Source of the DNA: Alphaproteobacteria bacterium
Lineage (GTDB): Bacteria > Pseudomonadota > Alphaproteobacteria > MPNO01 > UBA830
DNA: 64,000 nucleotides
Reading direction: 5' to 3'
Assembly (NCBI GenBank): GCA_964291215.2
Contig: OZ219791.1
Location: 1,024,001-1,088,000 of the forward strand
Part shown: positions 1-64,000 of the stretch, in pieces
Layout of the letters: the number at the start of each line of letters is the position of its first letter
Position numbering within the stretch: position 1 is the stretch's first letter
Position numbers and translations under genes: made by a program
The notes under the pieces: model-generated
What the model was told of the DNA's origin: nothing
Database searches by the model: none
Seen by the model: only the letters and a program-made list of their open reading frames with translations

Positions 1-1443
1 TGCAGGACCTGCTTGCGCTTGTCGCCATGGTGGCGTCGACGAAGCTGTTGAAGGGTTTGCGCAGCTTGCGCTTGTTGTGGATGATGACGGCGATTGCGAG
101 GGTGATCGCGTTGTTTGCGGGCGCGTTGCCCTTGACCATCAGTCCGCGCGACGGGTCTCGACGATCAGCCTCGCGGGTGGTGTGGAGCGCATCGAGGGTG
201 AGCAGACGGCCGGCAACCGGTGCCGTCTCGAGCGCGGCGTGGACGGCAGCGATCTCCCCGTCGTGACAGTTGAGGACCGAATACCGGCCAGCGAGACCGT
301 CTCGTAATGATCCTCGCCGGTGCGCTTGCCGTCGACCGCGTTGCCGACCTGCGGCTGCGCGCCGCATCCTCGATCCATCCCGGGTCGGTGTTCTGCAGCA
401 CCCGGTGCACGGTCGATCTGGAGACCGGCTTGTTCCTGTTCTTCCACGCTGCTCCAGCTCCTTCTGCGTCGTAGTGCGCCACCGCGCCGGTTCGCAAGCC
501 GCGCCATCACGCACAGCACCGAGGCGATGCCCCTGCGCGCGTCGGAAAGCGCCCCGAAGTGCTAAATCGAGCGCAACTCCTGCGCCGACCAGCGTCGCCC
601 GCAACTCCCACGCCGCAGGAAGCGGCGAACGATCCCGCGTCACGACGCAGCGGAAACACGTAAGGATCCTTCGCCTCCCCGGTCGGCGCCCGCTGGCGCG
701 CGCATGGCTCCTGCCAACGCACTCCCGGTTCGCCGCCTTGTACATGGTGCCGCTGAACTTCGTCGGCAAGACAAACTTCTCCGCAACAAGCAACGGCAGC
801 CTTCCGGTCGCCGCCGCACCATCCGCGACAACGCAAACGAGGCCCGGAAACGACCACCAGGAACAACAAACCTCGTGTTGTTCCCGGCAACCGCCTGAAC
901 TGTTCCTCGCGGCGCCAGCCAATCCAACGGTCCCGCGGTGCGCAGCAGGACCATTCTGTTGTCGCGATCGGCGGCGGACAACCGTGTCAGAGTGGCCGTT
1001 CTTGAAGTTGGTGGCACCGTCTCAAGGTCGGAACCGACATATTGACAACGAAATCCGCCCCCGAATGGACTTCCAGATCTGCCTACAACGCCCCTCGTCG
1101 GACGAAACCGGAAAAAAGAAGAGCCCTGCGGTGCGTAGCCGAGGGCGCCCGTCTGCCAGCCCGCAGCGCCAATCCACCGCCCGCGCCAGGTGAACACGCA
1201 GACCTCGACCGGCAAACTGCTTGAAACCAGGATACCGTCAACCGCACGATTCCAGCGACATCAGGCCGCGCAAGGCGCACAACCACATCCCGGAGCGCAA
1301 AACCCTCCGGAGTCGTCTCAAAAAAATCCGCTGCCGCCACGACAACGGATACTGCGCCGCTTCACAAAAAGTCAGCGAAAATGCGAATCATCCTGAACAA
1401 GCAAAACCGCCCCTTCCAACAAACCTGGCGTGGGATCGTCGTG
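1..1443 (-). mobile_element. ISAs1-family element remnant with N-terminal DUF4338 (DruA-like) region; runs off window start
   Basis: Terminal CACGACGATCCCACGC at 1443 (rc). Fragmented frames read LGFKQFAGRGLR, RDRWIGW, NNTRF, KFSGTMYKAANRECVGRS (DUF4338), then DGK...TLDALHT...VKGN (ISAs1 DDE). Near-identical to 30198-33740. Confidence 0.85.
947..1125 (-). mobile_element. Short insertion starting GGCTCT (possible ISL3-type end) inside the ISAs1 remnant
   Basis: Absent from the 30198 copy. Flanked by a degenerate duplication (gctacgcaccgcag / gctgcgcaccgcgg). Confidence 0.4.
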
Positions 1444-1551
1444 CACTAGTTATCATTAGTGTTGACAGGTCAACACTATAGGGTTAGCGTTAGCGCCTAA
1501 ATTAATGAAAAGCGCCGGATTTGGTTCAATACGACAGGGAGTTACTCCTAA

Positions 1552-2502
1552 ATGAAATATAAATTCAAACTGTTGGTCAGCGTCTTTGCCCTGACCCTTA
1601 TGGCAACGGAAGCGTTGGCGGCGGACTGGACACCGCCCGGTTCGATTAAAATGCTGATTGCCTTTCGGGCCGGTGGCGGCGCCGATACGCAAGCGCGCCT
1701 TATCGCCGAAGCCCTTGAAAGTAAGATGGGCTGGAAGTTCATCCCTGAGCAAGTCACCGGCAAGGGCGGCGTCAACATGCTCAACGCCCTTTCCAAGCAG
1801 CCCAATGACGGAACCGCCATCGGCATGGCCGTCACGGAATCCCTCGGCTACAACTTGGCGACGTCTAAATCCCTGCTCAAAGCGTCCAGTTTTACCGGCC
1901 TCTCGACCACGGCCGGTTTCCAGTTGGGCATCATCGGCCGGACCAAGGATGGCTGGAAAACCATGCGCGACGTGATCGCGTCGGCGAAGGCGGGAAAGAA
2001 AATCCGGCTTGGCACGATGAGCCCCCGGCTGGCCGATCTGACGTTTCTGCTGGAGAAGGCCAACGGCGTTAAATTCAATATCGTGTCCTACCGGGGCGGA
2101 ATAGCGGTCTTGAACGCCATCAACGCGGGTGATGTGGATGTCGGCTATGTTGCCGGTCCGCAGGCCAAAGGCGTCAAGGCCGGGGATTTGGTCGAGCTGG
2201 CATCGGCCCTCTCCAAACCGTTGAACGCCACGCCGAGTGCGCCGACGCTCAGCGACTTGGGCGTTAATTTCAACGCGGACGGCCAGTTCGTCTTTGTCGG
2301 CCCCGGCGGAATGCCGGCCGCGGTGCAGGACGCCTTGGGTAAAGCCATCGCCGGGGTTGTGACCGACCCGGATCAACAGGTCGCGAAGATCATCAAGCGG
2401 GTCTTCGGCGGGGCAATTACGATTACGGGCAAGGAGCTGGACGCCCACTTGCAGCAAGGATACGCCGACGCCGGCAAACTTGCGAAGGCCGTCAACCAGT
2501 AG
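1552..2502 (+). CDS. tctC: Tripartite tricarboxylate transporter substrate-binding protein (TctC/Bug)
   Basis: Signal peptide; AFRAGGGADTQAR and VSYRGG motifs typical of Bug proteins; upstream of tctB/tctA-like genes. Confidence 0.9.
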   Translation: MKYKFKLLVSVFALTLMATEALAADWTPPGSIKMLIAFRAGGGADTQARLIAEALESKMGWKFIPEQVTGKGGVNMLNALSKQPNDGTAIGMAVTESLGYNLATSKSLLKASSFTGLSTTAGFQLGIIGRTKDGWKTMRDVIASAKAGKKIRLGTMSPRLADLTFLLEKANGVKFNIVSYRGGIAVLNAINAGDVDVGYVAGPQAKGVKAGDLVELASALSKPLNATPSAPTLSDLGVNFNADGQFVFVGPGGMPAAVQDALGKAIAGVVTDPDQQVAKIIKRVFGGAITITGKELDAHLQQGYADAGKLAKAVNQ

Positions 2503-2513
2503 AACGCTGTGAT

Positions 2514-2706
2514 CACGATGATCCCACGCTGCTAATTCGGCGACGACTGGCGAGATTTTTTCAGTTTGCGTCGCGCTGCAATCTTGCCGCCAAGGCTCGA
2601 TAGGACCTTCTCGGCACGAAAATTGCGATCAAGGGGGCGATCTGTGATGACGCGAGCCCCAACGCATTCCGATTTCGCGTCTCCGAATTAGCATGGGATC
2701 ATTGTG
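2514..2706. mobile_element. ~190-bp MITE with ISAs1-type ends, copy 1
   Basis: TIR cacgatgatccca / tgggatcattgtg; 9-bp TSD cgctgtgat at 2505-2513 and 2707-2715. Confidence 0.9.
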
Positions 2707-6298: not shown

Positions 6299-6359
6299 TG
6301 TCGGTTGGATAAAGCGGCGGGATTTCGGCGATTCGCCGCGCTTTTCAGGATCGTGTTTC

Positions 6360-7841
6360 GTAACTGCTCACCCCCTGGTTCCGGCTTGATGTCGGGGTAG
6401 AGTAACGAACGGGTTTTCGTGGAGATTTGACACTGCAGGCCGATTCGTTTAGTGGTGGTAATCGAGAACGACGGGGACCGCCAGTGGGCTACTTTGGATC
6501 GAAGGCGACGAGCGGGCTGTGCCAGCTGCTTCCGGGGCTCCAGCCCCCGCATGATCTGTATGTGGAAACGCATCTCGGAAGCGGCGCGCTGATGAAGCGC
6601 AAGGCCGGGTGATGACGACGGGCGGCGCGCGAGGAGTTCGAAGCGGCCAAGACCGCAACGCTGCGTGCGGCCGGCAAGGTGGCGGAAGAGGCCGTGATCC
6701 GCGTCTTCGTCATCCTCATCGTCGTCCTTCTGGAGAAGACCACGCACGAGCCGGAACTCCGGTCTGCCGCCGTCACAGACGGACAAGAGCGTGCCGGGAG
6801 CAAGGGCCCGAAGCCGAACCGGCAGATGGGCGACAACCTGCGCAAGACCATCGTCGAGGAGACGGTCGCGGCCTGCGACGCCTGCGGCGCTGACATCGAC
6901 GGCCCCGTCGATCGGGAGCGCCGCACGACATCGTGTTCGAGGTCGTCGAGCGCCGCGCCGAGATCAAGGAATGCCCGAAGTGCAAGGGCCGGTTCCCCGA
7001 CAACATCCCGTGCAGTACGGCATCGGCATTCAGGCCCTCGTCATCAACCTGCTGGTCGCCCAGATGCTGTCCCTGCGCCGTGCCGTTGCGTTCGTGCAGG
7101 CGATCTCCGGCATCAAGCTCTCCGAGGCCTCGGCTATGCTTTCACGATGCGTCATGGGAGGAGGCCGCCGTGGCGCACCTCCTGCAACGCCCGATGTCGA
7201 TGATTTCGGATCAACAGTAAGTGGCTCCATGTCGTGGGACCCTGACGTGCAAGTTCCCGCACCGCAAGCGCGGGCAAGAGATCGGCCCGTGCTACAAGGG
7301 CGTCCTGGGCCTCGTACATGGCAGTGTAGCTACCAGCGGCAGCCACCTGCTGCGCGAACTGACCTTTGTCGTCGAGGCTACCGCGCGACTGATGAAGAGC
7401 CTGCTCCGCGAGGTCTGCCACAAGGTCAACAAGAGCGCATCCAAAACCCTGAACGACGTCGGGCGCAAGCGCTACCGCACCATCAGGGCGCCAGGGAACT
7501 GCCCGACATCCCGACGAAAGGAAAACGTGGACGCAAGTTCGATGCGCACAACCTGCACGAACGTCTCGTGAAACACGAAAACCTGCGCTTCACAGACGAC
7601 CCCGACGTCAGCTTCACCAACAATGCCGGAGAACAGAAGATCAGGATGGCAAAGGTCAAGGTGTCCGGATGCTTCCGCTCCACGCAAAAGCATGGTGCCG
7701 GGGCTCAAGCTACCTCACCTCCATGGCCGCACTCGGCTACAATCATCACGTCGCCACCCAGATCGCCCTCGACGGAAAAGCCGCAGACATCATCAACGAG
7801 CACTATGGCCAATCAGAACCCAACAAGGGGTGAGTAGATAC
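6360..7841 (+). mobile_element. IS66-family (ISBst12-like) element, deletion-riddled, with Dam-like passenger remnant
   Basis: IRs gtaactgctcacccc / ggggtgagtagatac; perfect 8-bp TSD cgtgtttc; fragments CDACG, ECPKC, HLLREL, FTNNAGEQKIRMAKVK. Confidence 0.92.
6484..6612 (+). pseudogene. Internally deleted Dam/D12-class DNA adenine methyltransferase
   Basis: GYFGSKA...PPHDLYVETHLGSGA resembles motif X plus SAM-binding motif I of Dam-family MTases; its TGA overlaps the transposase ATG. Confidence 0.7.
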
Positions 7842-8230
7842 CGTGTTTCTTTACTGTTGTCAGGTCCTGTTGTCGCGGTTTCAGTGTTTGTCTGTTTGTT
7901 TCTGTGGATGCCGCCCGTTTTCTTCCCTGTTGTCATTTCGGTCCGGTTCCGGTTTTTCTGCCGGCATGTGATCCGGGCTCCTGAGGGTTGTCGGGAGGGT
8001 TCTGGTGTTTCGCGGGATCGTCTGCCTTCCCTGTCGCCCGGGTCCTGTTGTCCGGGCCCGGGCGCCCTCGCGACGCCAGCACGAACAGATCAGCCTCGCC
8101 GCAAGGAGCCTTTCCAACGTCAGGACCATCGTCCTCGCAGGACCACGACGAGGCCGGAGAACGTCAGGTCGAAACCCTGCGCACAAGGCTGAAGGTTCCC
8201 CCTTGCCTTTGAGTACCCCCTTGGGTGGCC
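7842..8230 (-). mobile_element. IS5-like transposase C-terminal remnant (host of the 6360 IS66)
   Basis: Weak similarity (GTFSLVRR...MVLTLERLL) to IS5 C-termini. Confidence 0.4.
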
Positions 8231-8731
8231 CCTTGTGGGGTCAGGGTGGTTCGGTAGCGCTTGCGCACGGCCAGGCGGTCAGCCTCGTTCAGGGTCCTGG
8301 ATGCGCTCTTGTTAACCCTGTGGCAGGCAGGATGATCCCACGCTGCTAATCCGGCGACGACTGGCGAGATTTTCTCAGTTTGCGTCACGCTGCAATCGTG
8401 CCACCAAGGCTTGATGGAGCCTTCAAGGAGGCGATCTGTGATGATCCGAGCCCCAACGCATTCGGATTTCGCGTCTCCGAATTAGCATGGGATCGTCGTG
8501 GTGGCAGGTCTCGCGCAGCAGTTTCTTCATCAGGCGTGCTCAGCGGTAGCCTCGGCGATGAAGGTCAGTTCCCTGAGCAGGCGGGACCCGCACAGCTGGC
8601 GGGTGCATGGATCGCAGGCCAGCCATGCGGCCCAGCAGTCGTGGGCCAGCGTGCCGGTGTAGCTGATGCCGATCTCCTCGATCGCCTGCCTGCCGCGCCT
8701 GCGATGCAGGAACCTGCACGTCAGGGATCTG
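8231..8731 (-). mobile_element. IS66 transposase internal remnant
   Basis: HRRRGRQAIEEIGI.YTGTLAHDCWA...LCGSRLLRELTFI...KRYRT; interrupted by a MITE and cut by an intron. Confidence 0.85.
8328..8500. mobile_element. MITE copy 2 (20-bp internal deletion)
   Basis: Same sequence as copy 1; gtggcagg on both flanks. Confidence 0.88.
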
Positions 8732-9149
8732 GTGTGCCAGGCGAACTGGCAGAAGGCAGGGGGTGGAAGTCCCCCGGAACGAAGGAGTAACCAAACCGCG
8801 TTTCTCCGCGAGCCGTGCGTCGGTTCCCGCGAGGGGGCAGGCGAAGCGTCGGTAGCGGGGCTGATGGGCACCGAAAAGACGATGATCCGGGGTGCCGAGG
8901 TTTTCGGATCGGTCGAAGGCAACATCGCAGGCATCGATTTGGTGAGATGCCGGCGCGCCTCGCGGTGTCAGAGAACCCGTCCGTACGTCTTCTGTCGGGA
9001 CCCTGGGAGATCTTCAAGCTGTCCCGCCTGTCGGGACCGCGCAGGGAAAGGAGAAAGCCGAAGCCTGTGATGAACGGTTTGAAGAAGGGGCCCTGTGAAG
9101 GCGGCGAACAAGGGAGCTTCTGCGGAGTTGCCGGAGGAAAGGGCCTCGA
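8732..9149 (+). mobile_element. Group II intron 5' part (ribozyme), truncated
   Basis: Starts GTGTG; near-identical to the 5' part of 39289-40872; fused to ISAs1 DNA at gcctcga. Confidence 0.8.
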
Positions 9150-9255
9150 GCTCGTCCCGGGACAACGACCGCGCAAACTGCGCAGCTGCGAGGCAGCCTT
9201 TCATGTTCGCAAGCTCGGCGAGGACATGGATCTCGTCCTCGTGAACGATCGTGCG
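9143..9255 (-). mobile_element. ISAs1-DUF4338 element internal fragment
   Basis: HVLAELANMKGCLAAAQFARSLSRDELEA, matching 20986-21070. Confidence 0.75.
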
Positions 9256-11436: not shown

Positions 11437-13134
11437 CTAGATCGAAGTTCCAAAAAATTCCGGTTGAAATTCACGTCAACTCATTGATGCAGCGTGGTTT
11501 ATCGGATTTTTCGTGCGTCAGAGTGTACCCATGTAATATTATGTTGGATGCTTGACATCCATGGATCTACCGCCTATAGCCATGTATATCGAATCCATCC
11601 CCAACCGCTCGTCCCCGCCCGCCATCCTGCTCCGCGAGTCCTGTCGCGAAGCCGGAACGGTCAAGAAGCGCACCCTCGCCAACCTTTCCAAGCCCGCTCT
11701 CATCGAGGGATTGCGCATTCTGCTCAAGGGAGGAACCGCAGGTCTCGACGACGCCTCGTCCGCTCTCTTCCCCATGTCGCCGCGGTGCTGGGAACCCTGA
11801 AGAAACTGGACCGGCGGATCGACCCGAAGCCTTCTCCCGAGCGCGATCAGGTTCTCGCCATGATCGTGGCACGCATCCTTGAGCCCGCCTCGAAGCTGGC
11901 CAGGGGGCTGGCGACAGCGGTCAGCGCCTTGGGTGAGATGCGGAGTTGGACGAGAATGCCCTCTACGGCTCCTGGAACGTCAGGAGAGGATCCCCTGGCG
12001 GCACCTCGAAGAGGGCTGCCTGGTGCTCCTGACTTCCGTGTGGATGGAGGGGAGGGCAGCCCCTTGGCCCAACGGGGTCATTCCCGGGATGGCAAGAAGG
12101 GCAAGCTGCAGATCGAGTTTGGCCTTCTGTGCGACCGGGACGGGTGTCGGTGCGGGTGTTCCCCGGCAACACCCGGCCACGGTGTCCTCACAGATCGCCA
12201 CGCTGCGGGAGCGGTTCTCCTTTGCGAAGGTGGTGGGGGACCGAGGCCCGCGAGGAGGTCAAGCCTGCGGGCCAGCGCCTTGAGGGGCATCCGTTCACTG
12301 GTGGAGGCGGGTGACGATGTCGCTCTTCGACGAGAGAGACCTGGTGGAGATCACCAGCGATGTGTATCCCGGCGAACGCCTCTGCCACAACCCGTTGCTG
12401 GCCGAGGACCGGGCCCGCGGGACCTGCTCGAGGCCACCGAGGCTCGCACCGATTGCCGCAGCGACGCGACAAGCGCCGGGAAGATCGGGGAGCGGAAGGT
12501 CATCGGCAGGATGGCGAAGCACTTCACGTGGTCCATCGACGATGACGGTGTCTTCACCTATGGGCGCGATGAGGCTGCGATCGCTGCCGAGGCTCCTCTA
12601 CGTGGTCCGCCTGCCGCAGAGCGAGCTCGACGGTCCCGGCACGGTGCACGCCTGCAAGCGGCTGAACTCCGTGGAACGAGCCTTCCGCAGCCTCAAGGAC
12701 CTCAAGGCCCCCGTCCCGTCTACCCGAGCCCCGGGCCCACGTCTTCCTGTGCATGCTCGCCTACTACATGGCACATGCGCCAAAAACTGAAGCCCCTGCT
12801 GTTCGACGACGAGGATGCCGGAGGCGGCCGTCCGTCGTGGCGCCGGCAGAGGTCTCGGCGAGCGCCCGGGCCAAGGCGGCAACCAGGAGAACGCCCGGGG
12901 TGGCACAGCTTCCGTACCCTCATCGATGATCTCGCGACCATCACCCGCAACACCGTGGCGCCCCGCCTTGCGGGCGCCGAACCCTTCCAGGTCACCACAC
13001 GGCCCACGCCGCTCCAGAGAAGGGCATTTCAAGCTCCTGGGCGTGAAGCCATAGTGTACCGAGACCGCTGAAATGTATCGAATGTCATTTCTATCAGATA
13101 CTTAGGTCTGATCGTCTCTGGAACTTCGGATTAG
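11437..13134 (+). mobile_element. IS1634-family element, degraded
   Basis: IRs ctagatcgaagttcc / ggaacttcggattag; MYIESIPNRSSPPAILLRES, GHSRDGKKGKLQIEFGLLCD, VERAFRSLK, HVFLCMLA. Confidence 0.88.
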
Positions 13135-13253: not shown

Positions 13254-13467
13254 CTCGCTACTTGAGTTTGGCTGCGCAAGGACGGCGCATTGTGCATCAT
13301 CAGCCAGAGACATATGAACTTCTCCCGATACAAGCTGGCGTGCCCAAGCGCGCAAAGATGTTCTCCTCGCAGTACCGGGCAAGCGCGCCGTCCGACTTTG
13401 GATGGCAAGTCTTCTGCGCTATATTCGGCCCTGATGCCCTTACCGAATTTTTCTGGCACCTGGTCCC

Positions 13468-14745
13468 ATGTCGTATAGCCGAATTCTGCTGCAAATGTTC
13501 CTTGGTTGCGCGCTTGCGACACTCGCTGTGGTTTCCGGGTCGGCCCAGACGAGCCACCGTATTGCTGCCGTTGTCAATGACGACATGATTTCCGCCTATG
13601 ACCTCGATGCCCGCACTGGTCTCGTCATCTTCTTCGCGCGCATCGAAGACAGCTCCGATGTCCGCAGGCGCATCAGGGGTTCGGTTCTGCGCTCGCTGAT
13701 CGACGAGCGCCTGAAACTCCAGGAGGCTCGGCGGAGCGACATTTTCGTGAGCCAGGAGGAACTCGATCAGGAGTTGGCGGATTTTGCGCGGCGACAGAAT
13801 TTCTCGCGGGGTGCGCTGGAGAGAGTTCTCAAGGATCGGGGCATATCAGTGAACACGCTGCTGGCACAGTTAAGGGCCGAAATCGCATGGGCCAGGTTCG
13901 TCGGGCGCCGCTTTGCTCCGCGTGTCCAGATCGGCAACGAGGAAGTCCAGGACGAACTCGATCAACTCAAGGCTCGACAGGGCCAGACCGAGTATCGTCT
14001 GGCCGAAATCGTCCTCGCGGTCGACCGGCCTCGCGACGAGACGAGAATTCGCGAGGGAGCGGCCCGGCTTGGCGCCCAGATCCGGCGCGGTGCGCGGTTT
14101 CCTGCGCTTGCGCGGCAGTTCTCGCAGAGCGCTACCGCCGCTGTGGGTGGCGACCTTGGCTGGGTTAACCGGTCGGCGCTCGACGAAGAACTGCGCGTCA
14201 TCGTTCCGCGGATGGAGAGGGGCACGGTCTCGGATCCGATCAGGACCGCTGACGGCTACCGTATTGTTCGCCTGGTCGACAGAAGGAAGGTCGCCCAATC
14301 GGACGAGGATGACGTCGTCGTTTCGTTGCGCCGCCTGCTTCTGCCGTTGTCGGACGAACCCGGCGACGATGCCGCGCGCAAGCTGGCGGCACGGGCGCGG
14401 AACGTTTTCGAAGGCACGAACGGCTGCGACGATTTCGCCGGCCGGGCACAGGCGGCGGGGGCCCCTACGCCGTCCGGCGTCGCAAAGCTGACGTTGCGGG
14501 AACTGGCGGCCCCCATCCGCAGGATCGTCCGCGGCCTCAAAGTCGGCGCGGCGAGCGCGCCGCTGCCGGTACGCGAGGGTGTAGTCATTCTCGTGGTCTG
14601 CGCGCGCGAGACGACAGGACCAGACCGCGGCCTGCCCGATCGCGAAGCGGTTGCCGACCGCCTGCTTGAGCGGCGCCTCGCGCTTCTGGCCCGGCGGCAC
14701 CTGCGCGACGCCAGATTGTCGGCGGTCATCGACGTGCGCGGATGA
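13468..14745 (+). CDS. surA: Periplasmic chaperone/PPIase SurA
   Basis: Signal peptide, IAAVVND, LIDERLKLQEA, parvulin F..LARQFS...GGDLGW; upstream of pdxA. Confidence 0.9.
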   Translation: MSYSRILLQMFLGCALATLAVVSGSAQTSHRIAAVVNDDMISAYDLDARTGLVIFFARIEDSSDVRRRIRGSVLRSLIDERLKLQEARRSDIFVSQEELDQELADFARRQNFSRGALERVLKDRGISVNTLLAQLRAEIAWARFVGRRFAPRVQIGNEEVQDELDQLKARQGQTEYRLAEIVLAVDRPRDETRIREGAARLGAQIRRGARFPALARQFSQSATAAVGGDLGWVNRSALDEELRVIVPRMERGTVSDPIRTADGYRIVRLVDRRKVAQSDEDDVVVSLRRLLLPLSDEPGDDAARKLAARARNVFEGTNGCDDFAGRAQAAGAPTPSGVAKLTLRELAAPIRRIVRGLKVGAASAPLPVREGVVILVVCARETTGPDRGLPDREAVADRLLERRLALLARRHLRDARLSAVIDVRG

Positions 14746-14749
14746 TCCG

Positions 14750-15808
14750 GTGCCGGCCGATCTTCCACTGGCCGTCACCATGGGGGACCCGGCGGGAATC
14801 GGCGGCGAGATAGCGCTGAAGGCGTGGCGGGACCGGCGAGCCGACTTGCCATGCTTCTTCATGCTCGACGATGCGCGGCGTCTTCACCGCCTGGCCCGAC
14901 GGACCGGTCTCGATTGCCCCGTCGAGACGATCGGCTCGGCAGCCGAATCGGGCGGCGTCTTCGGCGACGCGCTGCCGGTCCTGCAGCTCAGCGGGGAGGT
15001 GAACTGCGAACCCGGTGGGGACAGCACATCCTGTGGCGCCCTGACGATCGAAGCAATCGACCGGGCCGTCGACGAGGTGATGGCGGGTCGCGCGGCAGGC
15101 ATGGTGACCAATCCAGTCACCAAGAGCAGTCTTTACGCGGCTGGTTTCCGATCTCCGGGCCACACCGAATATCTCGGAGAACGCGCCGGCCTCGATGGGC
15201 CGCCGGTGATGCTTCTCGCCGGACCCCGTCTGAGGGTCGTGCCGGTGACCGTCCACCTCGCGCTGTCGCAGGCAATCGAGGCGCTGACGGCGGAGGCGAT
15301 CGTCCATGCGCTTCGAACGACATGGCAGGCGATGAGTGAGGATTTCGGGATTGCGGATCCGCGAATCGCGGTTGCCGGTCTCAACCCCCATGCCGGCGAA
15401 GGCGGTCATCTGGGCCGTGAGGAAGCCGAGGTGATCGGGCCCGCGATCGCCAGCCTGCGCGCCGAAGGCGCCCGCGTCTTGGGCCCGCTGGCGAGCGATT
15501 CGATGTTCCACGAGGCGGCGCGGGATAGTTATGACGTCGCGGTGTGCATGTATCACGACCAAGCGCTGATCCCGCTCAAAACTCTGGATTTCGATGAAGG
15601 GGTGAACATCACGCTTGGGCTCCCGTTCGTGCGCACCTCCCCCGATCATGGCACCGCCTACAACATCGCCGGCACCGGAACCGCGAACCCGTCGAGCCTC
15701 GTGGCCGCGATACGGGCCGCTGCCGAAATCGCAGGATGCCGCCGCCGGCTTTCCCGACCGCGTGCGGGATCCGGGGCGGCAACCCGATGCCCTTCGGCGG
15801 CGTCCTGA
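14750..15808 (+). CDS. pdxA: 4-hydroxythreonine-4-phosphate dehydrogenase
   Basis: TMGDPAGIG, GHTEYL, GLNPHAGE, MYHDQ, RTSPDHGTA. Confidence 0.95.
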   Translation: MPADLPLAVTMGDPAGIGGEIALKAWRDRRADLPCFFMLDDARRLHRLARRTGLDCPVETIGSAAESGGVFGDALPVLQLSGEVNCEPGGDSTSCGALTIEAIDRAVDEVMAGRAAGMVTNPVTKSSLYAAGFRSPGHTEYLGERAGLDGPPVMLLAGPRLRVVPVTVHLALSQAIEALTAEAIVHALRTTWQAMSEDFGIADPRIAVAGLNPHAGEGGHLGREEAEVIGPAIASLRAEGARVLGPLASDSMFHEAARDSYDVAVCMYHDQALIPLKTLDFDEGVNITLGLPFVRTSPDHGTAYNIAGTGTANPSSLVAAIRAAAEIAGCRRRLSRPRAGSGAATRCPSAAS

Positions 15809-15861
15809 CTGGCAGGCCAGCGGCGCGCGATGCCGCTGGTCTGCCCTGACGGAACACGCCG

Positions 15862-16722
15862 TTGGCCGAGTTCCCGGCGATCATCGCCCTTCCGCCGCTA
15901 CGCGAAACCATCGCCGCGCACGGGCTCTCGGCGCGGAAGTCCCTTGGCCAGAATTTTCTCCTCGATCTTAATGTTGCCCGCCGCATTGCGCGCGCTGCGG
16001 GGCCCTTCGACGGGGTTTCGGTACTTGAGATCGGTCCGGGTCCGGGCGGGCTCACGCGGGCCCTGCTTGCTGAAGGCGTAGGACATGTCATCGCCGTCGA
16101 GAAAGACCGGCGCTGCATTGCCGCGCTCGCCGAGCTTGTTGCTGTGGCGGACGGCCGGCTCAAGATTGTCGAGGCCGACGCGCTCGCCGTTGATCCCGCG
16201 CAATGGGCCGGGGATTCGGGACGGCTGCGCGTTGTTGCCAATCTGCCCTACAACATTGCTACCGCTCTGCTTGTCCATTGGCTCGACATTGTCGGCATCT
16301 TCGACCGTCTGGTCCTGATGTTCCAGAAGGAGGTTGCCGACCGGATGGCCGCCGGGCCCGGGAGCCGGCGCTACGGGCGCCTTTCGGTCGCTGTGCAGTG
16401 GCGGTGTGATGTGCAGCGCCTGTTTGACCTGCCTCCGCAGGTCTTCGTGCCGCAGCCCGCGGTCCGCTCCTCGGTCGTGATGCTGACGCCGAGAAGCGCC
16501 GCGCTCGGCGCCGCTGATCCCGGGCTGTTCGGAGAGGTCGCCTCGGCAGCCTTCGGACAACGGCGGAAGATGTTGAGGTCCGCCCTCGGCGGCCTCTTTG
16601 CGTGTCCGGATGCGGCCCTGGAACGTTGCAGAATAGTTCGGGATGCCAGAGCTGAGAATCTCGAGGTGGAGGCGTTCAGCGCCCTGGCGCGGGTGCTCGA
16701 GGAGGAAAGGGCGGCGCGGTGA
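15862..16722 (+). CDS. rsmA: 16S rRNA dimethyladenosine transferase
   Basis: KSLGQNFL, EIGPGPG, ANLPYNI, FQKEVA, FGQRRKML. Confidence 0.95.
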   Translation: MAEFPAIIALPPLRETIAAHGLSARKSLGQNFLLDLNVARRIARAAGPFDGVSVLEIGPGPGGLTRALLAEGVGHVIAVEKDRRCIAALAELVAVADGRLKIVEADALAVDPAQWAGDSGRLRVVANLPYNIATALLVHWLDIVGIFDRLVLMFQKEVADRMAAGPGSRRYGRLSVAVQWRCDVQRLFDLPPQVFVPQPAVRSSVVMLTPRSAALGAADPGLFGEVASAAFGQRRKMLRSALGGLFACPDAALERCRIVRDARAENLEVEAFSALARVLEEERAAR

Positions 16723-16795
16723 TCCGAGTGGGAAGCGGTTTGACCTCGGTAATGGCCGCTGTCAGGTTCCGCCGCATGGAAAACGGGAAACGACC

Positions 16796-17854
16796 ATGAG
16801 CATTCTGCTGCTGAAACCCTCCGACCTCCAGGGACTCGTCGGGATGAAAGAAGCGATAGATGCGATCGAGCAGGGCTATCGCGAATCGACGGAGTTTCCG
16901 GTGATCAACGCGCCGCGGCGGCGGGTCCATTCGCCGGCCGGCGTACGCGTCTCGAACTTTCCCGGCGGCGTTCACGGACTTGGCGTCATGGGAGCGCAGG
17001 TACGCGCCGAGCTCGTCGTGCAAGAAGGGGCGAACCAGCGATATGCTCATCGCGAACGCCCGGTACACATCCTCCACGACTCGTCGACCGGGCGGATGCT
17101 TGCCATTCTATTTGGCGAGATCGACGAGAAGACCATTGGGCCGACGAGCCTGATGGCATTCCGCACGGCTGCGACCAGCGGCCTCGGATTCCGCCATCTT
17201 GTGCGCGAGGATGTGGAAACCGTAGGGCTCTTCGGAACCGCGGGTCAGGCGGCGAACCAGCTTTGGGCGCTGAAGACCGAGCGCGCAGGCATCCGGTCGG
17301 TAAAGGTCTACGGGCGCGATGCCGGCAGGCGGAACAAATTCGCCGAGACCTGGAGCGAGAAATTTGGCCTCAGCATCACCCCCATCGACGATCCTGACGA
17401 GGTCATCAAGGATGTTGACGTGGTGCTGTGCGCCACCAATACCAATGTCGAGCTGTTCGACGGCAACCGTCTCGTCGCGGGCCAGCACGTGACCGGAATT
17501 ATAGGTGGCAACAAGCAGCTCGTCCAGGGCGGATTCCTGCCCCGGCCGCGGCGCGAGATAGATGACAACACGGCAGTCCGGGCCGACATCATCGTGACCA
17601 ATCTCAAGGAGTCCATGGTTTCCGAGGAGCAGGGCGACCTCTACGGGCCGATCCACGCCGGCCTCATCGGAATCGACGACGTGTTCGAACTCGGCGATCT
17701 CGCGACCGGACGGCATCCGGGCCGGACTTCGGCGGATCAGATCACCTTTCACAAGAACAACAACGGGACCGGGTCGTCCGAGATGGCAATCGCCATGACA
17801 GCCTACCGGGCGGCCCTTGAACACGGGCGCGGCATCGAGATCGATCTCGACTGA
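16796..17854 (+). CDS. Ornithine cyclodeaminase/mu-crystallin family protein
   Basis: RTAATSG, Rossmann GLFGTAGQA, DVVLCAT, ELGDL..G..PGR...QIT. Confidence 0.85.
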   Translation: MSILLLKPSDLQGLVGMKEAIDAIEQGYRESTEFPVINAPRRRVHSPAGVRVSNFPGGVHGLGVMGAQVRAELVVQEGANQRYAHRERPVHILHDSSTGRMLAILFGEIDEKTIGPTSLMAFRTAATSGLGFRHLVREDVETVGLFGTAGQAANQLWALKTERAGIRSVKVYGRDAGRRNKFAETWSEKFGLSITPIDDPDEVIKDVDVVLCATNTNVELFDGNRLVAGQHVTGIIGGNKQLVQGGFLPRPRREIDDNTAVRADIIVTNLKESMVSEEQGDLYGPIHAGLIGIDDVFELGDLATGRHPGRTSADQITFHKNNNGTGSSEMAIAMTAYRAALEHGRGIEIDLD

Positions 17855-17960
17855 TTGTTCCGTTCGGAAACCTCCCGGGATGTCCTCGGTCCGGCCGGCC
17901 GCGGCGCCGGCACGGATGAAGCCAGGCCCGGCGCGCGGGTGCTGATCCAAGGGGCTCGAC

Positions 17961-18701
17961 ATGACGATCGATCTCGATATCACTTGGGCTGAGGCAGCCA
18001 TCATTGCCGCGACGGCCTTCGTCGCTGGCGTGATGCGAGGGTTTTCCGGTTTCGGGTCGGCCCTGACCATCGTTCCGGTCACTGCTGCCGTGGTCGGGCC
18101 TCTGGTTGCGGTGCCGGCGGTGGTGGTGATGCACATCGCGACCAGCGGCCAGCTGCTTCCAAGTGCCCTTCGCGCTGCCGATTGGGGCCGTGTCTGGCCG
18201 TTGTCGATATCCGGCGTAATTGGGGTCCCTGCGGGCGCGTGGCTCCTGGTATCGCAGGATCCGGAACACCTGCGGCGCGGCATATCGCTGCTGATTATCG
18301 TGTTTGCGCTCCTGATGCTGCGGGGCTGGCGTTACCGGGGCCGGATCACCTACTGGGTCACGACCGCGGTAGGTGGCTTCGGAGGCGTGGTTTCTGGCGC
18401 GGCCATGATCGGCGGGCCGCCGGTGATTATGTTTCTGCTCGCGGGCCCCCACCAAGCGGCGCAGAACCGCGGTACCATCATCCTGTATTTTCAGTTTACC
18501 CAACTCGCCGCCTTCGCCATATACTGGTACGAGGGCCTTCTGCTGTGGGTGGTCCTGTGGGTCGCCCTGCTCACCGCCCCGACGCTGATGGTCGGCATGT
18601 GGTTCGGCCAGTGGCTGTTCAGCCGGGCTTCGGAGGCCGTGTTCAGGCGCGTCGCGCTGTTTTTCCTCCTGGCGGTCGGCGTGACCACGTTCTTCGCTTA
18701 G
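17961..18701 (+). CDS. Sulfite exporter TauE/SafE family membrane protein
   Basis: GVMRGFSGFG and GGPP motifs; about 8 TM helices. Confidence 0.88.
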   Translation: MTIDLDITWAEAAIIAATAFVAGVMRGFSGFGSALTIVPVTAAVVGPLVAVPAVVVMHIATSGQLLPSALRAADWGRVWPLSISGVIGVPAGAWLLVSQDPEHLRRGISLLIIVFALLMLRGWRYRGRITYWVTTAVGGFGGVVSGAAMIGGPPVIMFLLAGPHQAAQNRGTIILYFQFTQLAAFAIYWYEGLLLWVVLWVALLTAPTLMVGMWFGQWLFSRASEAVFRRVALFFLLAVGVTTFFA

Positions 18702-24482: not shown

Positions 24483-24555
24483 CCCCGACCGCTTTCCGAA
24501 TTTCCGTTCCCGGAAGCCGCGGCGCGAAGACCGCGCCGCAGCACGCCTGGAGAGC

Positions 24556-29495: not shown

Positions 29496-29832
29496 CTGCG
29501 ATATTCCCGTCACTGGAGCGTCGGACCTGTCTTGTCGCGCGAACGGATTCCCAGTATGCATTATGGTCCCGAACAACAGGAGCCTCTTTCCGGCAACGCC
29601 ACCGACATCGTTTGCCACGGATGAGGCGAAACCGCCGTTCTTCGGGCTCCGCCAAGTTTGTGGTCATCCGCTGCCGAAACCGTCATCTCACCAGCTTAGA
29701 GCATATTATATGGTGGAGTTCCCGTATACGGACAATTCCTCATGTTAAATTTTGTTACATTCGGGATCTGGAGAACATTACTGAGCCCCCGAAGATCGAT
29801 ACACGACAGCGAAGTTCCGGCGTCGTCGGATC

Positions 29833-60290: not shown

Positions 60291-60569
60291 TAGATGAGCG
60301 TTTGTTCGTGCGGTGAGGTGTTGTTGTTTTCGTCCGGTATCTACTCACCCCTAGTTGGGTTCTGATTGGTCGTAGTGCTCGTTGATGATGTCTGCGGCTT
60401 TTCCGTCGAGGGCGATCTGGGTGGCGACGAGTGGGTTGTAGCCGAGTGCGGCCATGGAGGTGAGGTAGCTTGGCACCATGCTTTTGCGTGGAGCGGAAGC
60501 ATCCGGGCACCTTGACCTTTGCCATCCTGATCTTCTGTTCTCCGGCATTGTTGGTGAAGCTGACGTCGG

Positions 60570-62040
60570 GTGCGCCAGGCAAACTGGTGGAATGTGGCCG
60601 GGTGCAAGTCCCGAGAGAGGCTAATTTCTCCGTGAACCATGCGTCGCCAGGCGAAGCGTTGGGGAGCGGCAGGCCAGGCTATTGAGCCACGAGATGCTTT
60701 GAAACCGGAGTGCCGAGGTCGTGGCCGAAGGCAACGAGCCGCGTTGGTGAGGGGGGCTCCGCGGGGTCCGAGAACCAGGGCCGAAGCAGGGACCTGGGAG
60801 GTCTTGCCCCTCTGTCGTGGAGGGGCCGCAGAGGAAATTCCGTAAACCGATGATGAACGAGAAGTCAGATTCGGCCATAGTACCGCTGAAGGCGGCGAAC
60901 AAGGGTTCTTCGGAGCCTGCGGAGTTGTTGGAGGGAAGGGCAATGCGGTTGGCCCGCGCCGCGCGCAGAAGCGGGGGTCACAGGCGGCAGGTAGCGAAGA
61001 GGAACCCGGAAGAGCGTCTTTACTCCACCACGTGATGTTCTGCGTTCCATTCCTTGAGGAAGGACGCGGCGGCGGGGCGTTGTGTGGCAAGCGTACGCGG
61101 AGGGTGTGGAACTGCTGCACGCCCGTGTGCACAGGGGTGCGTACCGGGCGCCTCCAGGGTTTACATACCCAAGGAGGATGGAGGGCAACTTGCCTCGGAC
61201 AAGATTCTTCAGCGGGCGGTGTGATTCTGGTGCCGCGAGACGGAGTTCCTCGGTTCCGGCCGGGGCGCATCATGCGCCGTCACGGTGGAACGGCGGAAGG
61301 TCAACTGGATCGTTGACGCCCCTTCGACAATCGCGACCATCTGGTCGCGATGCTCGGGAAACGGATCGGGGGGTCTGATCATCAAGTGACGCCGGCGTCA
61401 TGGAAGGGACCGACTGGCAAGGTAACGCCGCAAGGGGCGGCGCCATGCCTTGCGAACCTGCACTACGTACGACTGGTTCCAGAACCACTGGCGCAAGCGG
61501 GACACGATCATTATGCGGACGACTTCGTGTGCGGCTTTCAGCATCTGGGCGGCGCTGAGACCTTGGGGAGAGACTGGCCCACTTGAACTGCACCCGGAAA
61601 ATCATCGAGTTCGGTCGGTTTGCCAGAGCGAACCGCCGGAAGCGTGGGCAAGACGTTCGACTTCCTCGGCATGACGCACTTCTGCGAACAGACGAGGAAA
61701 GGCAGGTTCAGGGTCGGTCGCAAACGGGCACCCTGCGGCGGATCAAGGAGGCCTTGCGCAGGCGGTGGCACGATAACCGGCACGAAACGGCCCAGTGGAG
61801 AGTTATCAACGGCTGCTACTACGCCGTTCCAGGAAGCAGCCTGCAGAAGTTCATAACCAATGCAAACAGCTGCGTGCCCTTCGGCGACGCTCCCAAAAGG
61901 ACTTCACCGGGGACATAGACACCCTCACCGCTGCCCACTGAGCCAGCATCCGTGGCCAAACCAGCGCCTTGTCGTCAGGGGAGGAGCGAACAGCGCACGT
62001 CCGGTTCTGTGCGGGGGGTAACCCGGTTCCCTACCGCGAT
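60570..62040 (+). mobile_element. Group II intron (second lineage), degraded RT
   Basis: 5' GTGCG; 3' ccctaccgcgat; YADDFVCGF, FGRFA, FDFLGMTH, HPWP; excision restores LRFIDNPDVSFTNN on the minus strand. Confidence 0.9.
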
Positions 62041-62993
62041 GGTTGTCTATGAAGCGCAGGTTTTCGTGTTTCACGAGACGTTCGTGCAGGTTGTGCGCGT
62101 TTGCGTCCACGTTTTCCTTTCGGCGGGATGTCGGGCAGTTCCCTGGCGCCCTGATGGTGCGGTAGCGCCCGGCGTCGTTCAGGGTTTTGGATGCGCTCTT
62201 GTTGACCTTGTGGCAGGGAGTAGGCTCTTCATCAGTCGCGCGGTAGCCTCGACGACAAAGGTCAGTTCGCGCAGCAGGTGGCTACACTGGTCATAGCCCA
62301 TGTACGAGGTCCAGGACGCCCTTGTAGCACGGGCCGATCTCTTGCCCGCGCTTGCGGTGCGGGAACTTGCACGTCCCGACGACATGGAGCCACTTGCTGT
62401 TGATCCGAAATCGTCGACATCGGGCGTTGCAGGAGGTACGCCACGGCGGCCTCCTCCCATGACGCATCGTGAAAGCATAGCTGAGGCCTCGGAGAGCTTG
62501 ATATCGCCTGCACGAACGCGACGGCACGGCGCAGGGACAGCATCTGGGTGACCAGCAGGTTGATAACGAGGGCCTGGATGCCGTACTGCACGGGATGTTA
62601 TCGGGGAACCGGCCCTTGCACTTCGGGCATTCCTTGATCTCGGCGCGGCGCTCGACGACCTCGAACACAATGTCGTGCGGCGCTCCCGATCGACGGGGCC
62701 GTCGATGTCAGCGCCGCAGGCGTCGCAGGCCGCGACCGTTTTCTCGACGATGATCTTGCGCAGGTTGTCGCCCATCTGCCGGTTCGGCTTCGGGCCCTTG
62801 CTCCCGGCACGCTCTTGTCCGTCTGTGACGGCGGCAGACCGGAGTTCCGGCTCGTGCGTGGACTTTTCCAGAAGGACGACGATGAGGATGTCGAGCAGGA
62901 TGACGAAGACGCGGATCACGGCCTCTTTCGGCACCTTGCCGGCAGCGCCGCGGTCCTGGCCGCTTCGAACTCCTCGCGCGCCGCCCGTCGCCA

Positions 62994-63188
62994 TCACCCG
63001 GCCTCGACGGTCATGATCGTCGCGAGCATCGCTTGGCGCTCGCCCGGCGGCATCTTCCGGTACTCCGCCTTGCGCTTCATCAGCGCGCCGCCTCCGAGAT
63101 GCGTTTCCACATACAGATCATGCGGGGGCTGGAGCCCCGGAAGCAGCTGGCACAGCCCGCTCGTCGCCTTCGATCCAAAGTAGCCTAC
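62994..63188 (-). pseudogene. Internally deleted Dam-like methyltransferase (second copy, longer C-terminus)
   Basis: GYFGSKA...YVETHLGGGALMKRK joined to EYRKMPPGERQAMLATIMTVEAG. Confidence 0.7.
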
Positions 63189-64000
63189 TGGCGGTCCCCG
63201 TCGTTCTCGATTACCACCACTAAACGAATCGGCCTGCAGTGTCAAATCTCCACGAAAACCCGTTCATTACTCTACCCCGACATCAAGCCGGAACCAGGGG
63301 GTGAGCAGTTACTTCGTCCGTTTGACGGGCTTTTGTCAGGGAGTTCAAGCGTCACCCGGAGCGGTTTCGTGCACCGGGATGCGCGGTGAGGGGCACTGGC
63401 GCCATGCCGTGTTTTCCGCATCGGTTGCTGTTTTGTCCCGGCGCTGCGGAGTAGGGGCTGAGCGCCATCCTGTGCCGGTTGCAGGGGTCTGAGGGTCCGC
63501 TCCTTGCGGAGCGGGCCAGATGTCCTTCTTCGGCTTCTGTCATGTCGGTCGTAGCGGCCGCTGGTTGTTCCGACGCGGCCGCGGCCCGGCAGATGCTGCC
63601 GCGGCGCGGGACCTCGACCAGAGTCTCGCAGGGCACGGGCGTGGTGTTGCAGCGCGCGGTCCATGCGGGAGTCGAGAAGCAGCGGCTCGCCGTTCCGATC
63701 ATCGACCGCGTAGCGCATTTGCGCGCCGACCAGGCGCGTGTATCCGAGGTAGTGTCAGCGGGCGGAGCTCGTCGAGGGTCTTCGGGGCGGCGGTGTGATC
63801 AGCTTCGGGGCTGGCGGCGGCAGAAGGCGCGGGCGATGGGGTCCGCTCCGTGATCGTCGCAGCACTGCGCGACCATGAAGTCGCGCCCTCGACCTCACGG
63901 CGGCGCTGCGAATCTCCGCCGCCTCTCCGGGCTCACGGCAACCAGGGCGACAGATCGCCGGGCCGCCGTTCTCCGCACAGGCACCAGCGCAGAACGTCGA

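Follow-up and report, generated by a model that had tools for sequence, protein, structure and literature searches.

Why are the mobile elements in this stretch of DNA broken by many short deletions, when the genes beside them are uninterrupted? Does this reflect a deletion-biased mutational process filtered by selection, or a system that inactivates repeated DNA, as a sequence-only reading had suggested? We examined the window (the whole 64,000-nucleotide stretch analysed here) together with the genome that holds it (G000), a 93%-identical relative (G001), a second species of the genus (G002) and two further genus genomes (G003 and G004), five related genomes in all. Logan contigs from three sequencing runs (X1, X2 and X3) were used as a check on assembly. 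Mobile genes from eight or more families are indeed densely marked by short deletions, with 166 deletions and 254 substitutions in the 8.94 kb of copies alignable to a family reference; IS66, ISAs1, IS110, IS1634, ISNCY, ISAzo13, the group II intron RT, MITEs and unassigned families are all hit. The features of the window are:

1..1444, minus strand: eroded ISAs1-family copy, family F15 (ISAs1 identity taken from its intact relative L293), with a 291-bp microhomology deletion collapsed at 120-127.
945-1131: 187-bp MITE inserted in this F15 copy.
2514..2706, unstranded: MITE F35, a family of about 107 full copies in which 5-7 bp deletions are almost absent.
6352..7849, plus strand: IS66-family copy (IS66a, about 150 copies) with a perfect 8-bp TSD, cgtgtttc.
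8333..8501, unstranded: MITE F35 copy with a 21-bp deletion, within an older IS66-like host fragment.
8725..9228, plus strand: 5' part of a group II intron joined to an ISAs1 fragment at gcctcga (9143); Rfam RF02005 match at 8766-8977.
11577..13114, plus strand: eroded IS1634-family copy that sits in an unassigned repeat family, with 14 deletions over the 610 bp scored (12385-12996).
13382..18948, plus strand: intact single-copy host block (surA, pdxA, rsmA, cyclodeaminase, TauE).
18937..23418, plus strand: ISAs1-family element F25 with a perfect 10-bp TSD, tccaaatggg, and two IS110 copies nested inside; 38 deletions over 1,626 scored bp.
19075..20447, minus strand: IS110-family copy F10, 30 deletions per 1,362 bp.
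21621..23015, plus strand: IS110-family copy F10, 26 deletions per 1,389 bp.
23409..29545, unstranded: intact single-copy host block (amidohydrolase, RND efflux pair).
30198..33742, plus strand: ISAs1-family copy F15 that retains 291 bp between aacgcgcc repeats.
30597-30786: MITE interrupting this F15 copy, its right end joined to the flank at 30781.
30937-32535: ISNCY element interrupting the same copy, TSD gagcta.
36993..37185, unstranded: MITE F35 copy.
37860..42570, unstranded: nest of eroded elements, including an IS66 end, ISAzo13 fragments (38390-38931), a group II intron with RT remnants (RF02005 at 39323-39516) and a diverged IS66-like copy (40922-42209).
47009-47204 (within 47009..48846): MITE F35 copy.
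47686-48528 (within 47009..48846), minus strand: eroded ISAzo13 copy.
60329..63320, minus strand: IS66a copy with a perfect TSD, ttcgtccg (60329/63313).
60605-60776, plus strand: RF02005 match of a group II intron inside this IS66a copy, near its right end.
63313..64000, unstranded: unassigned repeat family F22/F16, the target of the IS66a-intron unit insertion.

In the IS66a copy at 6352..7849, whose empty site is present in runs X1-X3, 1,475 aligned bp hold 32 deletions and 21 substitutions, and 24 of these deletions are 5-7 bp long. This size class accounts for 105 of the 166 window deletions. Genome-wide, we catalogued 13,682 deletions in 1,123 repeat copies, 10,238 of them (75%) of 5-7 bp. 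The size spectrum rises 43-fold in a single step, from 49 deletions of 4 bp to 2122 of 5 bp, peaks with 5279 of 6 bp and declines through 2837 of 7 bp to 391 of 8 bp; the aligner returned simulated deletion sizes exactly. Only 283 insertions of 5-7 bp occur in the same set. Polarity is likewise one-sided against intact ISAs1 elements, with 361 deletion vs 27 insertion events relative to L293 and 407 vs 18 relative to L306. We found no account of such a 5-7 bp deletion signature in the literature. The size peak and the sharing of deletions between copies had both been overlooked in the sequence-only reading.

Do the junctions sit mostly on short direct repeats, as had been claimed? The examples cited are all in the sequence: the 291 bp between aacgcgcc repeats (33105/33396), the 12-bp catcct case (6712 vs 62885), the 7-bp gggga case (20308 vs 21748), and the MITE-flank and intron/ISAs1 junctions listed above. 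They come from a microhomology-rich minority. The general claim fails: among 146 window deletions of at least 5 bp, 89 show 0-1 bp of microhomology and 33 show at least 3 bp. Over 696 distinct 5-7 bp sites the corresponding shares are 58% and 23%; at least 3 bp is expected by chance at 5-8%, so that microhomology is enriched about threefold, yet at a minority of sites. 'Microhomology deletion' is the wrong name for this erosion. Ordinary microhomology slippage or alternative end-joining under relaxed selection would explain that enrichment and some long deletions flanked by 8-10 bp repeats, including the 291-bp one and a 74-bp one, and remains a minor component. As the main source it is very improbable, since slippage predicts neither the step between 4 and 5 bp nor the drop at 8 bp and should leave tandem insertions, which make up 2 of 156 distinct insertions of 4-9 bp; moreover, G001 lacks the peak, and in G002 microhomology is near chance (at least 3 bp at 7 of 138 distinct 5-7 bp sites). 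Neither Ku nor an ATP-dependent ligase turned up in G000 or in any of the other four genomes of the genus, and Ku-LigD NHEJ was rejected for that reason.

Is the signature restricted to repeats? In 1.128 Mb of single-copy DNA, 5-7 bp blocks are missing 173 times from G000 vs 14 times from G001, and indels of 1-4 bp are symmetric (350 vs 302). The deletion process is genome-wide, recent and independent of repeats. Of the five genomes, G000 and G002 alone show the signature; G001 lacks the peak, as do the repeats of G003 and G004 and the young families. G002 shows the same size peak in a sample of about 300 kb from chosen loci, where the pairwise count is pseudo-replicated, and an AT at one end of 21 of 26 clean sites, where 6% would be expected. 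Single-copy events of G000 show the end motif only weakly.

How do host genes escape? In 666 intact genes, the only surviving losses are in-frame 6-bp ones (22 vs 0). The two host blocks of the window (11.7 kb) serve as internal control: relative to G001 they show zero 5-7 bp loss, with four 1-bp indels and one 3-bp indel only, and an X1 contig covers 13382..18948 with 0 differences. Host genes are likely kept intact by selection, which would purge frameshifting losses. The proposal of deletion-biased mutation filtered by selection thus stands, as a lineage-specific process acting genome-wide. The perfection of TSDs, also claimed, holds for four in the window (cgtgtttc at 6352/7842, tccaaatggg at 18937/23409, ttcgtccg and gagcta at 30931/32536) and fails genome-wide, where 84 of 119 scored IS66 copies have perfect TSDs, 6 have 1-2 mismatches and 29 are unmatched; TSDs are short, young and unique, hence their perfect look.

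An assembly or consensus artefact had been left open. Within repeats, Logan contigs do not extend far enough to phase single copies, and the runs hold 55-73% of the sampled words of a repeat-rich stretch. Nevertheless, X1 contigs cross single-copy deletions with no gap, strain X3 retains two 7-bp ancestral blocks that are also present in G001, and both alleles occur in the runs at repeat sites. With the respect for reading frame and the lack of the peak in young families and in the repeats of G003 and G004, this rules out an artefact, outright so at single-copy sites, and we consider its probability negligible.

When do the deletions arise? Private deletions are biased to the leading strand (28 vs 5, p 7e-5; background 50.7%), an assignment backed by KOPS, and therefore new deletions likely arise at replication. 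They begin with a purine-pyrimidine step (AT, GT, GC) on that strand. Shared deletions show no strand bias (1744 vs 1614) and none to the transposase sense strand; singletons adjoining common sites divide 8 vs 11, and the single-copy bias, taken by itself, falls short of significance (27 vs 18 and 8 vs 5). We tentatively propose that the nascent leading strand may be nicked on the 5' side of a purine, with ribonucleotide excision or repriming as the best candidate sources, that the nick may be widened to a gap of 5-7 nt and sealed unfilled, and that the template loop would escape MutS. Mismatch repair removes loops up to about 4 nt, which would account for the sharp lower edge of the spectrum.

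Could a defective repair gene be responsible? An inventory of ku/ligD, mutSL and other repair genes, which the earlier reading had advised, yielded no broken one among about 45 checked in G000. Intact genes include polA with all motifs, rnhA, rnhB, mutS, mutL, dnaQ, uvrD, recA, recFOR, ruvABC, recG, radA, recJ, xseA, topA and dnaG; NucS, Argonaute and endonuclease V were not found. A mismatch-repair-deficient mutator was rejected on the intact mutS and mutL and on the symmetry of 1-4 bp indels with G001. TopA cuts are expected to show a cytosine at -4, which is not enriched at the deletions. Residues R35 and R168 of TopA are conserved, and the sole G000-specific change at a genus-invariant site of its catalytic core is R to K. 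The E. coli topoisomerase I mutators R35P and R168C, in the accessible part of their description, show about a 100-fold excess of short deletions at a normal substitution rate, and resemble the present case in their hotspots, their independence of repeats and their intact mismatch repair (PMC6954433). Nearly all R35P deletions there are 1-4 bp long, with one of 6 and one of 7 among 48 clones, and R168C yields duplications (PMC6954433). The conserved residues and the 5-7 bp peak argue against a TopA mutator. Deletions of 2-5 bp by Top1 at ribonucleotides (signature ID4) share the narrow size window, the nick-and-religate logic and a sequence-defined end; according to the part of the source available, they need a type IB topoisomerase and short tandem repeats and are linked to transcription and RNase H2 loss (PMC13492167). 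This route was rejected: G000 has no TopIB match (PF01028), its RNase HII (rnhB) is intact, and the bias is to the leading strand rather than the transposase sense strand.

Alternatively, an element-encoded DruA-like domain (DUF4338), fused to ISAs1 and other transposases, might modify or nick purines on new DNA, with repair deleting 5-7 bases. This would alter only the initiating step, and elements would drive their own extinction. PF14236 matches are most numerous in the two genomes with the signature (70 in G002 and 41 in G000; G004 8, G001 4, G003 0), and intact fused proteins exist in G000. However, across these five related genomes the number of matches is confounded with how many IS each carries overall, open-frame copies occur in G001 and G004 as well, and the activity is a prediction from the domain; we regard this origin as improbable.

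Why, then, are repeats so much more heavily eroded? Density reaches 7-19 deletions per kb in long repeat families, against about 0.3 per kb in dead single-copy genes (25 IS-interrupted genes), although the signature is identical in both, because deletions are copied between copies. None of the 105 window deletions of 5-7 bp is private to its own copy; all are common to other copies, in patchwork with SNP tracts. Repeat copies genome-wide carry such patchwork haplotypes: SNP-SNP r2 falls from 0.335 below 15 bp to 0.03 beyond 250 bp, and four-gamete pairs exceed 0.8 in the five largest families. The copies thus undergo non-allelic gene conversion, in which short tracts are swapped and nearly every deletion comes to be shared. 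Each has about 3 private substitutions vs 11-32 deletions; relative to intact relatives there are 18-19 deletions and 12-29 nonsynonymous changes per kb.

Does conversion favour the shorter allele? Deleted alleles of 5-7 bp have a mean frequency of 0.31 (162 of 561 sites above 0.5), compared with 0.12 for 1-4 bp deletions, 0.075 for those of at least 15 bp and 0.077 for SNP minor alleles (p 3e-22). In a toy model a bias of 0.2-0.4 is required for this pair of values, and neutral runs fail. Exchange therefore probably favours the deleted allele, which would raise its frequency and reach even the intron catalytic domain and, where homology on the flanks is short, would spare MITEs and element ends. 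A formerly much stronger mutator would also yield old, frequent deletions without biased conversion.

This is the substance of a second reading, in which the same mutator was stronger in past episodes, eroded elements were re-amplified in trans, conversion was unbiased and frequency reflects age. Intact helper transposases exist (intact elements are ISAs1 L293 and L306, IS1634 L294 and IS66 F31); neither strain X3 nor G001 has the IS110 copy with 26 deletions, so that eroded copies or their content move; and a G002 copy with 11 deletions and 2 substitutions relative to an intact IS630 copy fits a burst. Deletion load drops toward element ends (1.6, 4.4, 7.6 and 13.9 per kb), which fits re-amplification, but substitutions are not lower there, and intron ends, where homology continues, show no drop. 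Among sister-copy triplets, shared blocks were regained 75 times and lost 51 times, which at face value opposes a deletion bias; we set this count aside as skewed by majority state (SNPs 105 vs 33). A sweep test around deleted alleles, without power, gave a diversity ratio of 0.85-0.97, equal to the SNP control, so neither test showed drive. On the other side, 14 and 18 of 34 intron copies (40-50%) carry deletions in domains V and VI respectively, which homing requires in cis, with passive carriage in IS66 as a loophole; none of 735 aligned G001 orthologs exceeds about 6 deletions per kb; and no intact IS110, IS630 (F6, F11, F14) or IS256 (F3) exists among the full-length copies scored. We judge past episodes with unbiased conversion unlikely.

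We favour, at a probability of roughly 55%, a genome-wide 5-7 base mutator combined with conversion between mobile copies that likely favours the shorter allele, by which older families were broken in every full-length copy. A bolder version, unlikely as a whole, is that a replication-coupled process, perhaps begun by the transposon-encoded DruA-like domain, cuts ruler-measured blocks, that biased conversion turns them into a drive sterilising IS and intron families, and that this arose independently in the two IS-rich species of the genus; if true, it would act as a brake by which transposon blooms limit themselves, no gene dedicated to defence being involved. This natural bacterial indel signature has no match among the mutators found: its deletions are of fixed length, need no repeat and are biased to the leading strand, in a genome whose standard repair genes are intact. 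With thousands of dated events in G000 and a sharper motif in G002, the enzyme should be findable. The case is also a countable example of how an IS bloom can end with no defence system involved. As the first bacterial one in which deletion-biased gene conversion can be tested, it touches on the old question of where the deletion bias of bacterial genomes originates. Cordaux (2009) reportedly described gene conversion among degraded IS in Wolbachia. There, non-functional IS copies stay similar through conversion, and short fixed-length deletions are not described in the part of the source available (PMC3205602). In Drosophila and primates, non-allelic conversion favours the deleted allele by about 3.4:1, so that paralogs shrink together, and the available part of that report mentions no size peak (PMC3280953); here, the bias would act in bacterial IS and intron families, is deduced from allele frequencies and would be fed by a fixed-length mutator. 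In transformation, homologous recombination removes sequence more readily than it adds it, as measured for kilobase islands in the part of that study available (PMC5850275).

Finally, could a dedicated defence recognise repeats and make the 5-7 bp deletions, as a bacterial analogue of RIP? Fungal RIP introduces C-to-T changes into duplicated DNA only. The excess in long families over single-copy genes fits such targeting, and all long old families are hit whatever their transposition chemistry. It is largely refuted, and we hold it very improbable, since single-copy DNA carries the identical signature, deletions are shared rather than made anew in each copy, with no strand bias among the shared ones, Argonaute, NucS and Ku were not found, MITEs at 46-103 copies are almost spared, and the 12 near-identical copies of the young intact IS66 family F31 have no 5-7 bp deletion. 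In RIP only duplicated DNA is affected; here, deletions appear throughout the genome and spare young repeats. The outcome nonetheless resembles repeat inactivation, with multi-copy mobile DNA inactivated and host genes spared, in a genome of which 28% consists of repeats at five or more copies.

Sequence present in at least five copies makes up 27–29% of each of the two contigs of the source genome (G000; alphaproteobacterial, 6.15 Mb, 64% GC) in self-comparison. The window occupies C2:1,024,001-1,088,000. Its repeat families comprise IS66, IS256, three IS630, IS110, ISAs1, IS1634, ISAzo13 and ISNCY elements, group II introns and MITEs. We built references for 20 families, each retaining any block that some 5% of copies still possess. 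A total of 1,123 copies or fragments were aligned to them (932,002 bp; fragments shorter than 250 bp or more than 10% divergent were dropped). The aligned copies hold 13,682 deletions against 22,428 substitutions, and the deletions peak at 5–7 bp (1 bp, 991; 2 bp, 247; 3 bp, 151; 4 bp, 49; 5 bp, 2122; 6 bp, 5279; 7 bp, 2837; 8 bp, 391; 9 bp, 119; 10 bp, 63; 11–14 bp, 1026). Since the sizes of simulated 1–14 bp deletions are recovered exactly by alignment, the peak is not an effect of the aligner. The window shows the same peak, with 105 of its 166 deletions at 5–7 bp.

Are these events truly losses? Long open frames in the family references were abandoned as a guide to polarity, since in family F15 the frame of 663 codons is an antisense shadow; intact genomic copies were used instead. 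Tabulated against intact ISAs1 relatives, as the sequence-only reading had advised, loss prevails by 361 events to 27 and by 407 to 18. The few apparent insertions are non-tandem 5–7-mers, that is, blocks lost from nearly all copies. Thirteen old families were scored, and none of their full-length copies passing the filters is free of frameshifting indels.

The sequence-only reading had described mobile genes broken by short deletions between intact target site duplications (TSDs). Its observation is real and striking, and all five junctions were confirmed, as were the four TSDs (ttcgtccg lies at 60329/63313), but its rule that junctions mostly sit on short direct repeats is wrong. Among 696 distinct 5–7 bp sites, microhomology amounts to 0–1 bp at 58% and to at least 3 bp at 23% (chance, 5–8%); it is enriched but minor. 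The same holds for window deletions of at least 5 bp, 89 of 146 of which have 0–1 bp. End-joining through Ku/LigD, also suggested there, is dismissed, as neither Ku nor an ATP-dependent ligase was found in the source genome. The size peak, the sharing between copies and the single-copy signal could not be visible to that reading.

Is the process confined to repeats? We aligned 1.128 Mb of single-copy DNA, with 77,549 substitutions, to the nearest relative compared (G001; ~93% identity over shared DNA). Blocks of 5, 6 and 7 bp are missing 29, 103 and 41 times from the source genome versus 4, 6 and 4 times from the relative (173 vs 14), whereas indels of 1–4 bp are symmetric (350 vs 302). The 666 intact orthologs of the two genomes show 22 in-frame losses of 6 bp and no gain of 6 bp; these in-frame losses in genes reflect selection, not an error pattern. 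Deletion-biased mutation filtered by selection, one of the processes put forward earlier, is thus borne out, as is the integrity of the adjacent host genes, where 11.7 kb aligned to the relative contains five indels of 1–3 bp only. The suspicion of an assembly artefact falls away: contigs of one sequencing run (X1) cross single-copy deletions without a gap, and a separate strain (X3, 0.7% diverged) retains two 7-bp blocks. That strain also lacks one IS110 copy that has 26 deletions in the source genome; together with the retained blocks, this indicates that the deletion process is recent.

A dedicated system that targets repeats, which had been considered possible, is very unlikely: single-copy DNA is deleted too, intact ISAs1 and IS1634 copies persist, and no 5–7 bp deletion occurs across 12 copies of a young IS66 family whose 463-aa transposase is intact. 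This family (F31; locus L296, G000:C2:295600-298100) has 12 near-full copies more than 99% alike, and its ends begin GTAACTGC, as in the eroded family IS66a; it is a possible helper in trans.

Why, then, is the load so heavy in repeats? Long families carry 7–19 deletions per kb, whereas 25 IS-interrupted single-copy genes, some merely truncated beside a repeat, have seven 5–7 bp deletions in 22.7 kb. The comparison of repeats with single-copy DNA proposed earlier finds the signature in both and the greater load in repeats. Duplicates of 2–4 copies have 115 deletions of 5–7 bp over 155 kb, alongside 5,888 substitutions. Repeat copies are young, as judged from private substitutions (~3 per copy) and from perfect TSDs in 84 of 90 matched IS66 pairs. 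Each could be expected to have gained well under one deletion in place. Since IS66a copies carry 12–42 deletions each, and all 105 of the 5–7 bp deletions of the window are shared with other copies, the deletions were imported. Their presence and absence form a mosaic over a star-like tree, and SNPs form short patchwork haplotypes with linkage decaying within ~60 bp. In ~25 of 119 IS66 copies the flanks are unrelated, which points to crossing-over between copies. Despite 28% repeats and unmatched flanks in about a quarter of IS66 copies, GC skew and KOPS polarity are clear, and most exchanges between copies are therefore non-crossover or preserve replichore orientation.

We propose a genome-wide 5–7 bp deletion mutator combined with gene conversion among repeats that favors the deleted allele. 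The main rival replaces biased conversion by a mutator stronger in the past and neutral copying. Deleted alleles reach a mean frequency of 0.31 for 5–7 bp deletions; SNP minor alleles average 0.077 and deletions of 1–4 bp 0.12. A toy model fails to match this pair of values unless conversion favors the deleted allele. Against a bias, sister-copy triplets show 75 regains versus 51 losses of blocks, in a skewed test, and no sweep signal appears in flanking diversity at deleted alleles, in a test powerless by its own control. Against intact relatives, two families show 18–19 deletions per kb with 12–29 nonsynonymous changes per kb, and a third 9 with 38; the deletion:substitution ratio is several times that in private or single-copy dead DNA, the private class (changes in one copy only) comprising 124 deletions of 5–7 bp against 2,997 substitutions. 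IS elements carry fewer deletions near their ends, and MITEs carry few; intron ends, beyond which homology continues into the host element, show no such drop. Deletions disrupt domain V in 14 of 34 intron copies.

How do new deletions arise? Deleted blocks of the source genome have one weakly defined end: they start with AT, GT or GC, preceded by C or G, and tend to end in A. Position matrices around deletions contain no distant recognition motif or restriction-type motif at a fixed distance. With replichores assigned from GC skew and KOPS, and a start rule fixed in advance from shared sites, private deletions place the rule on the leading strand in 28 cases and on the lagging strand in 5 (38 vs 14 when the filters are relaxed). 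Among single-copy events the lean has the same direction without being significant (27 vs 18; 8 vs 5). Neither doubletons (28 vs 26) nor shared events (1744 vs 1614) show a lean, so shared deletions were not born at their present location. A bias for the transposase sense strand is absent (82 vs 93, or 89 vs 86 with the F15 sense strand corrected). New events are thus probably tied to replication. The footprint of lagging-strand RNA primers was rejected, the observed orientation being the opposite.

MutS-dependent repair removes loops of up to about 4 nt. Deletion might start where the nascent leading strand is nicked 5' of a purine; the nick would be widened to a 5–7 nt gap and ligated without fill-in, and the resulting loop would evade MutS. 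RNase HII is reported to nick 5' of misincorporated ribonucleotides 200–2,200 times per replication (PMC13492167), so that starts would be numerous enough. Loops of 19 nt are reported to escape repair (PMC2082072).

Which gene is responsible? None of ~45 replication and repair genes examined is broken, and the repair inventory proposed earlier (including mutS, mutL, polA and addA) thus yields no culprit. A polA defect is rejected, the gene being full length with all motifs; each genome compared has one single 5'-3' nuclease domain. Loss of xseA, recJ, mutS, mutL, dnaQ, uvrD/addA, recA, dnaG or UDG is likewise rejected, all being present and open, as in the genus. A TopA mutation does not fit, the rule of a C at −4 failing here too. 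Searches of the source genome for TopIB, NucS, endonuclease V and Argonaute found none of them. In tblastn, 32 E. coli references give intact matches apart from sbcD and family 1 ung, which have none, and sbcC, exoX, ligB and topB, which have weak or paralogous matches only. Of G001 genes, 225 lack a match in the source genome; as the comparison covered 1.68 of ~5 Mb of G001, it may have overlooked a gene loss. An intact uracil-DNA glycosylase superfamily gene at 49097-49690 (-), also in G001, is one of five UDG matches of the source genome.

DruA-domain transposases are a lead as to cause, suggested by match counts that are highest in the two affected genomes and confounded with IS load (G002, 70; source genome, 41; G004, 8; G001, 4; G003, 0). 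Two intact ISAs1 transposases of the source genome (L293:224-1981 and L306:189-2198) have an N-terminal DruA-like domain (PF14236), and a remnant of such a transposase lies at 38001-38435.

G002–G004 are remoter members of the genus (PolA identity 66–74%). Paralogous repeats of G002 show the same peak (4 bp, 5; 5 bp, 170; 6 bp, 130; 7 bp, 32; 8 bp, 3; 110 pairwise, pseudo-replicated matches), with microhomology of at least 3 bp at 7 of 138 distinct 5–7 bp sites. The block end is sharp there, a terminal AT marking 21 of 26 clean sites on one side (expected, 6%), and one IS630 copy differs from an intact copy by 11 deletions of 5–9 bp and 2 substitutions. Repeats of G003 and G004 show no 5–7 bp peak over 243 and 267 substitutions. 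A 6.2-Mb genome of another family (G030) serves as an IS-rich control: most of its ~130 IS66 matches are identical with open frames, and no erosion is visible at the three loci compared.

The process may be likened to a combination of the E. coli topA mutator (PMC6954433) with non-allelic conversion biased toward deletions (PMC3280953). The former resembles it as a deletion mutator and differs in size and sequence; the latter would correspond to the copying step. NHEJ, ID4 and RIP fail on defining genes or scope. Among the matches listed in searches of open-access literature, none describes the signature or uses the terms '5–7 bp deletions' or '6-bp deletions'.

Several arrangements accompany the repeats. 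Among families F11, F14, F10, F3 and F39, IS630 copies insert at CTAG, often within the ends of other elements, and many IS256 copies share one site at the end of F39, giving nested arrays. Two group II intron families (window 60337-62040; F127/F55) use the same site ~243 bp from the IS66a right end; a group II intron is carried inside an IS66a element between intact TSDs. Three RadC-like genes (G000:C1 463468-464016, 818031-818582; C2 25184-25735) lie in a low-copy duplicated island whose copies differ by several 5–6 bp indels, and three extra ssb homologues lie outside it. Other features of the window are:

27729-29618 (-), RND periplasmic adaptor adjoining an RND permease; its N-terminal EF-hand region has weak lanmodulin likeness (NCBIfam E 8e-9, below cut-off), and 28844-29275 is a 216-bp tandem duplication
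34760-37072 (-), 770-aa protein with 27-bp predicted RTX-type calcium-binding repeats, its frame still open despite multiple genomic copies of the repeat
36993-37185, MITE at the 5' end of the RTX-type gene
9721-10824 (+), fusion of a HigA-type antitoxin with a longer domain; a second, ~90% identical copy occurs in the genome and the sequencing runs
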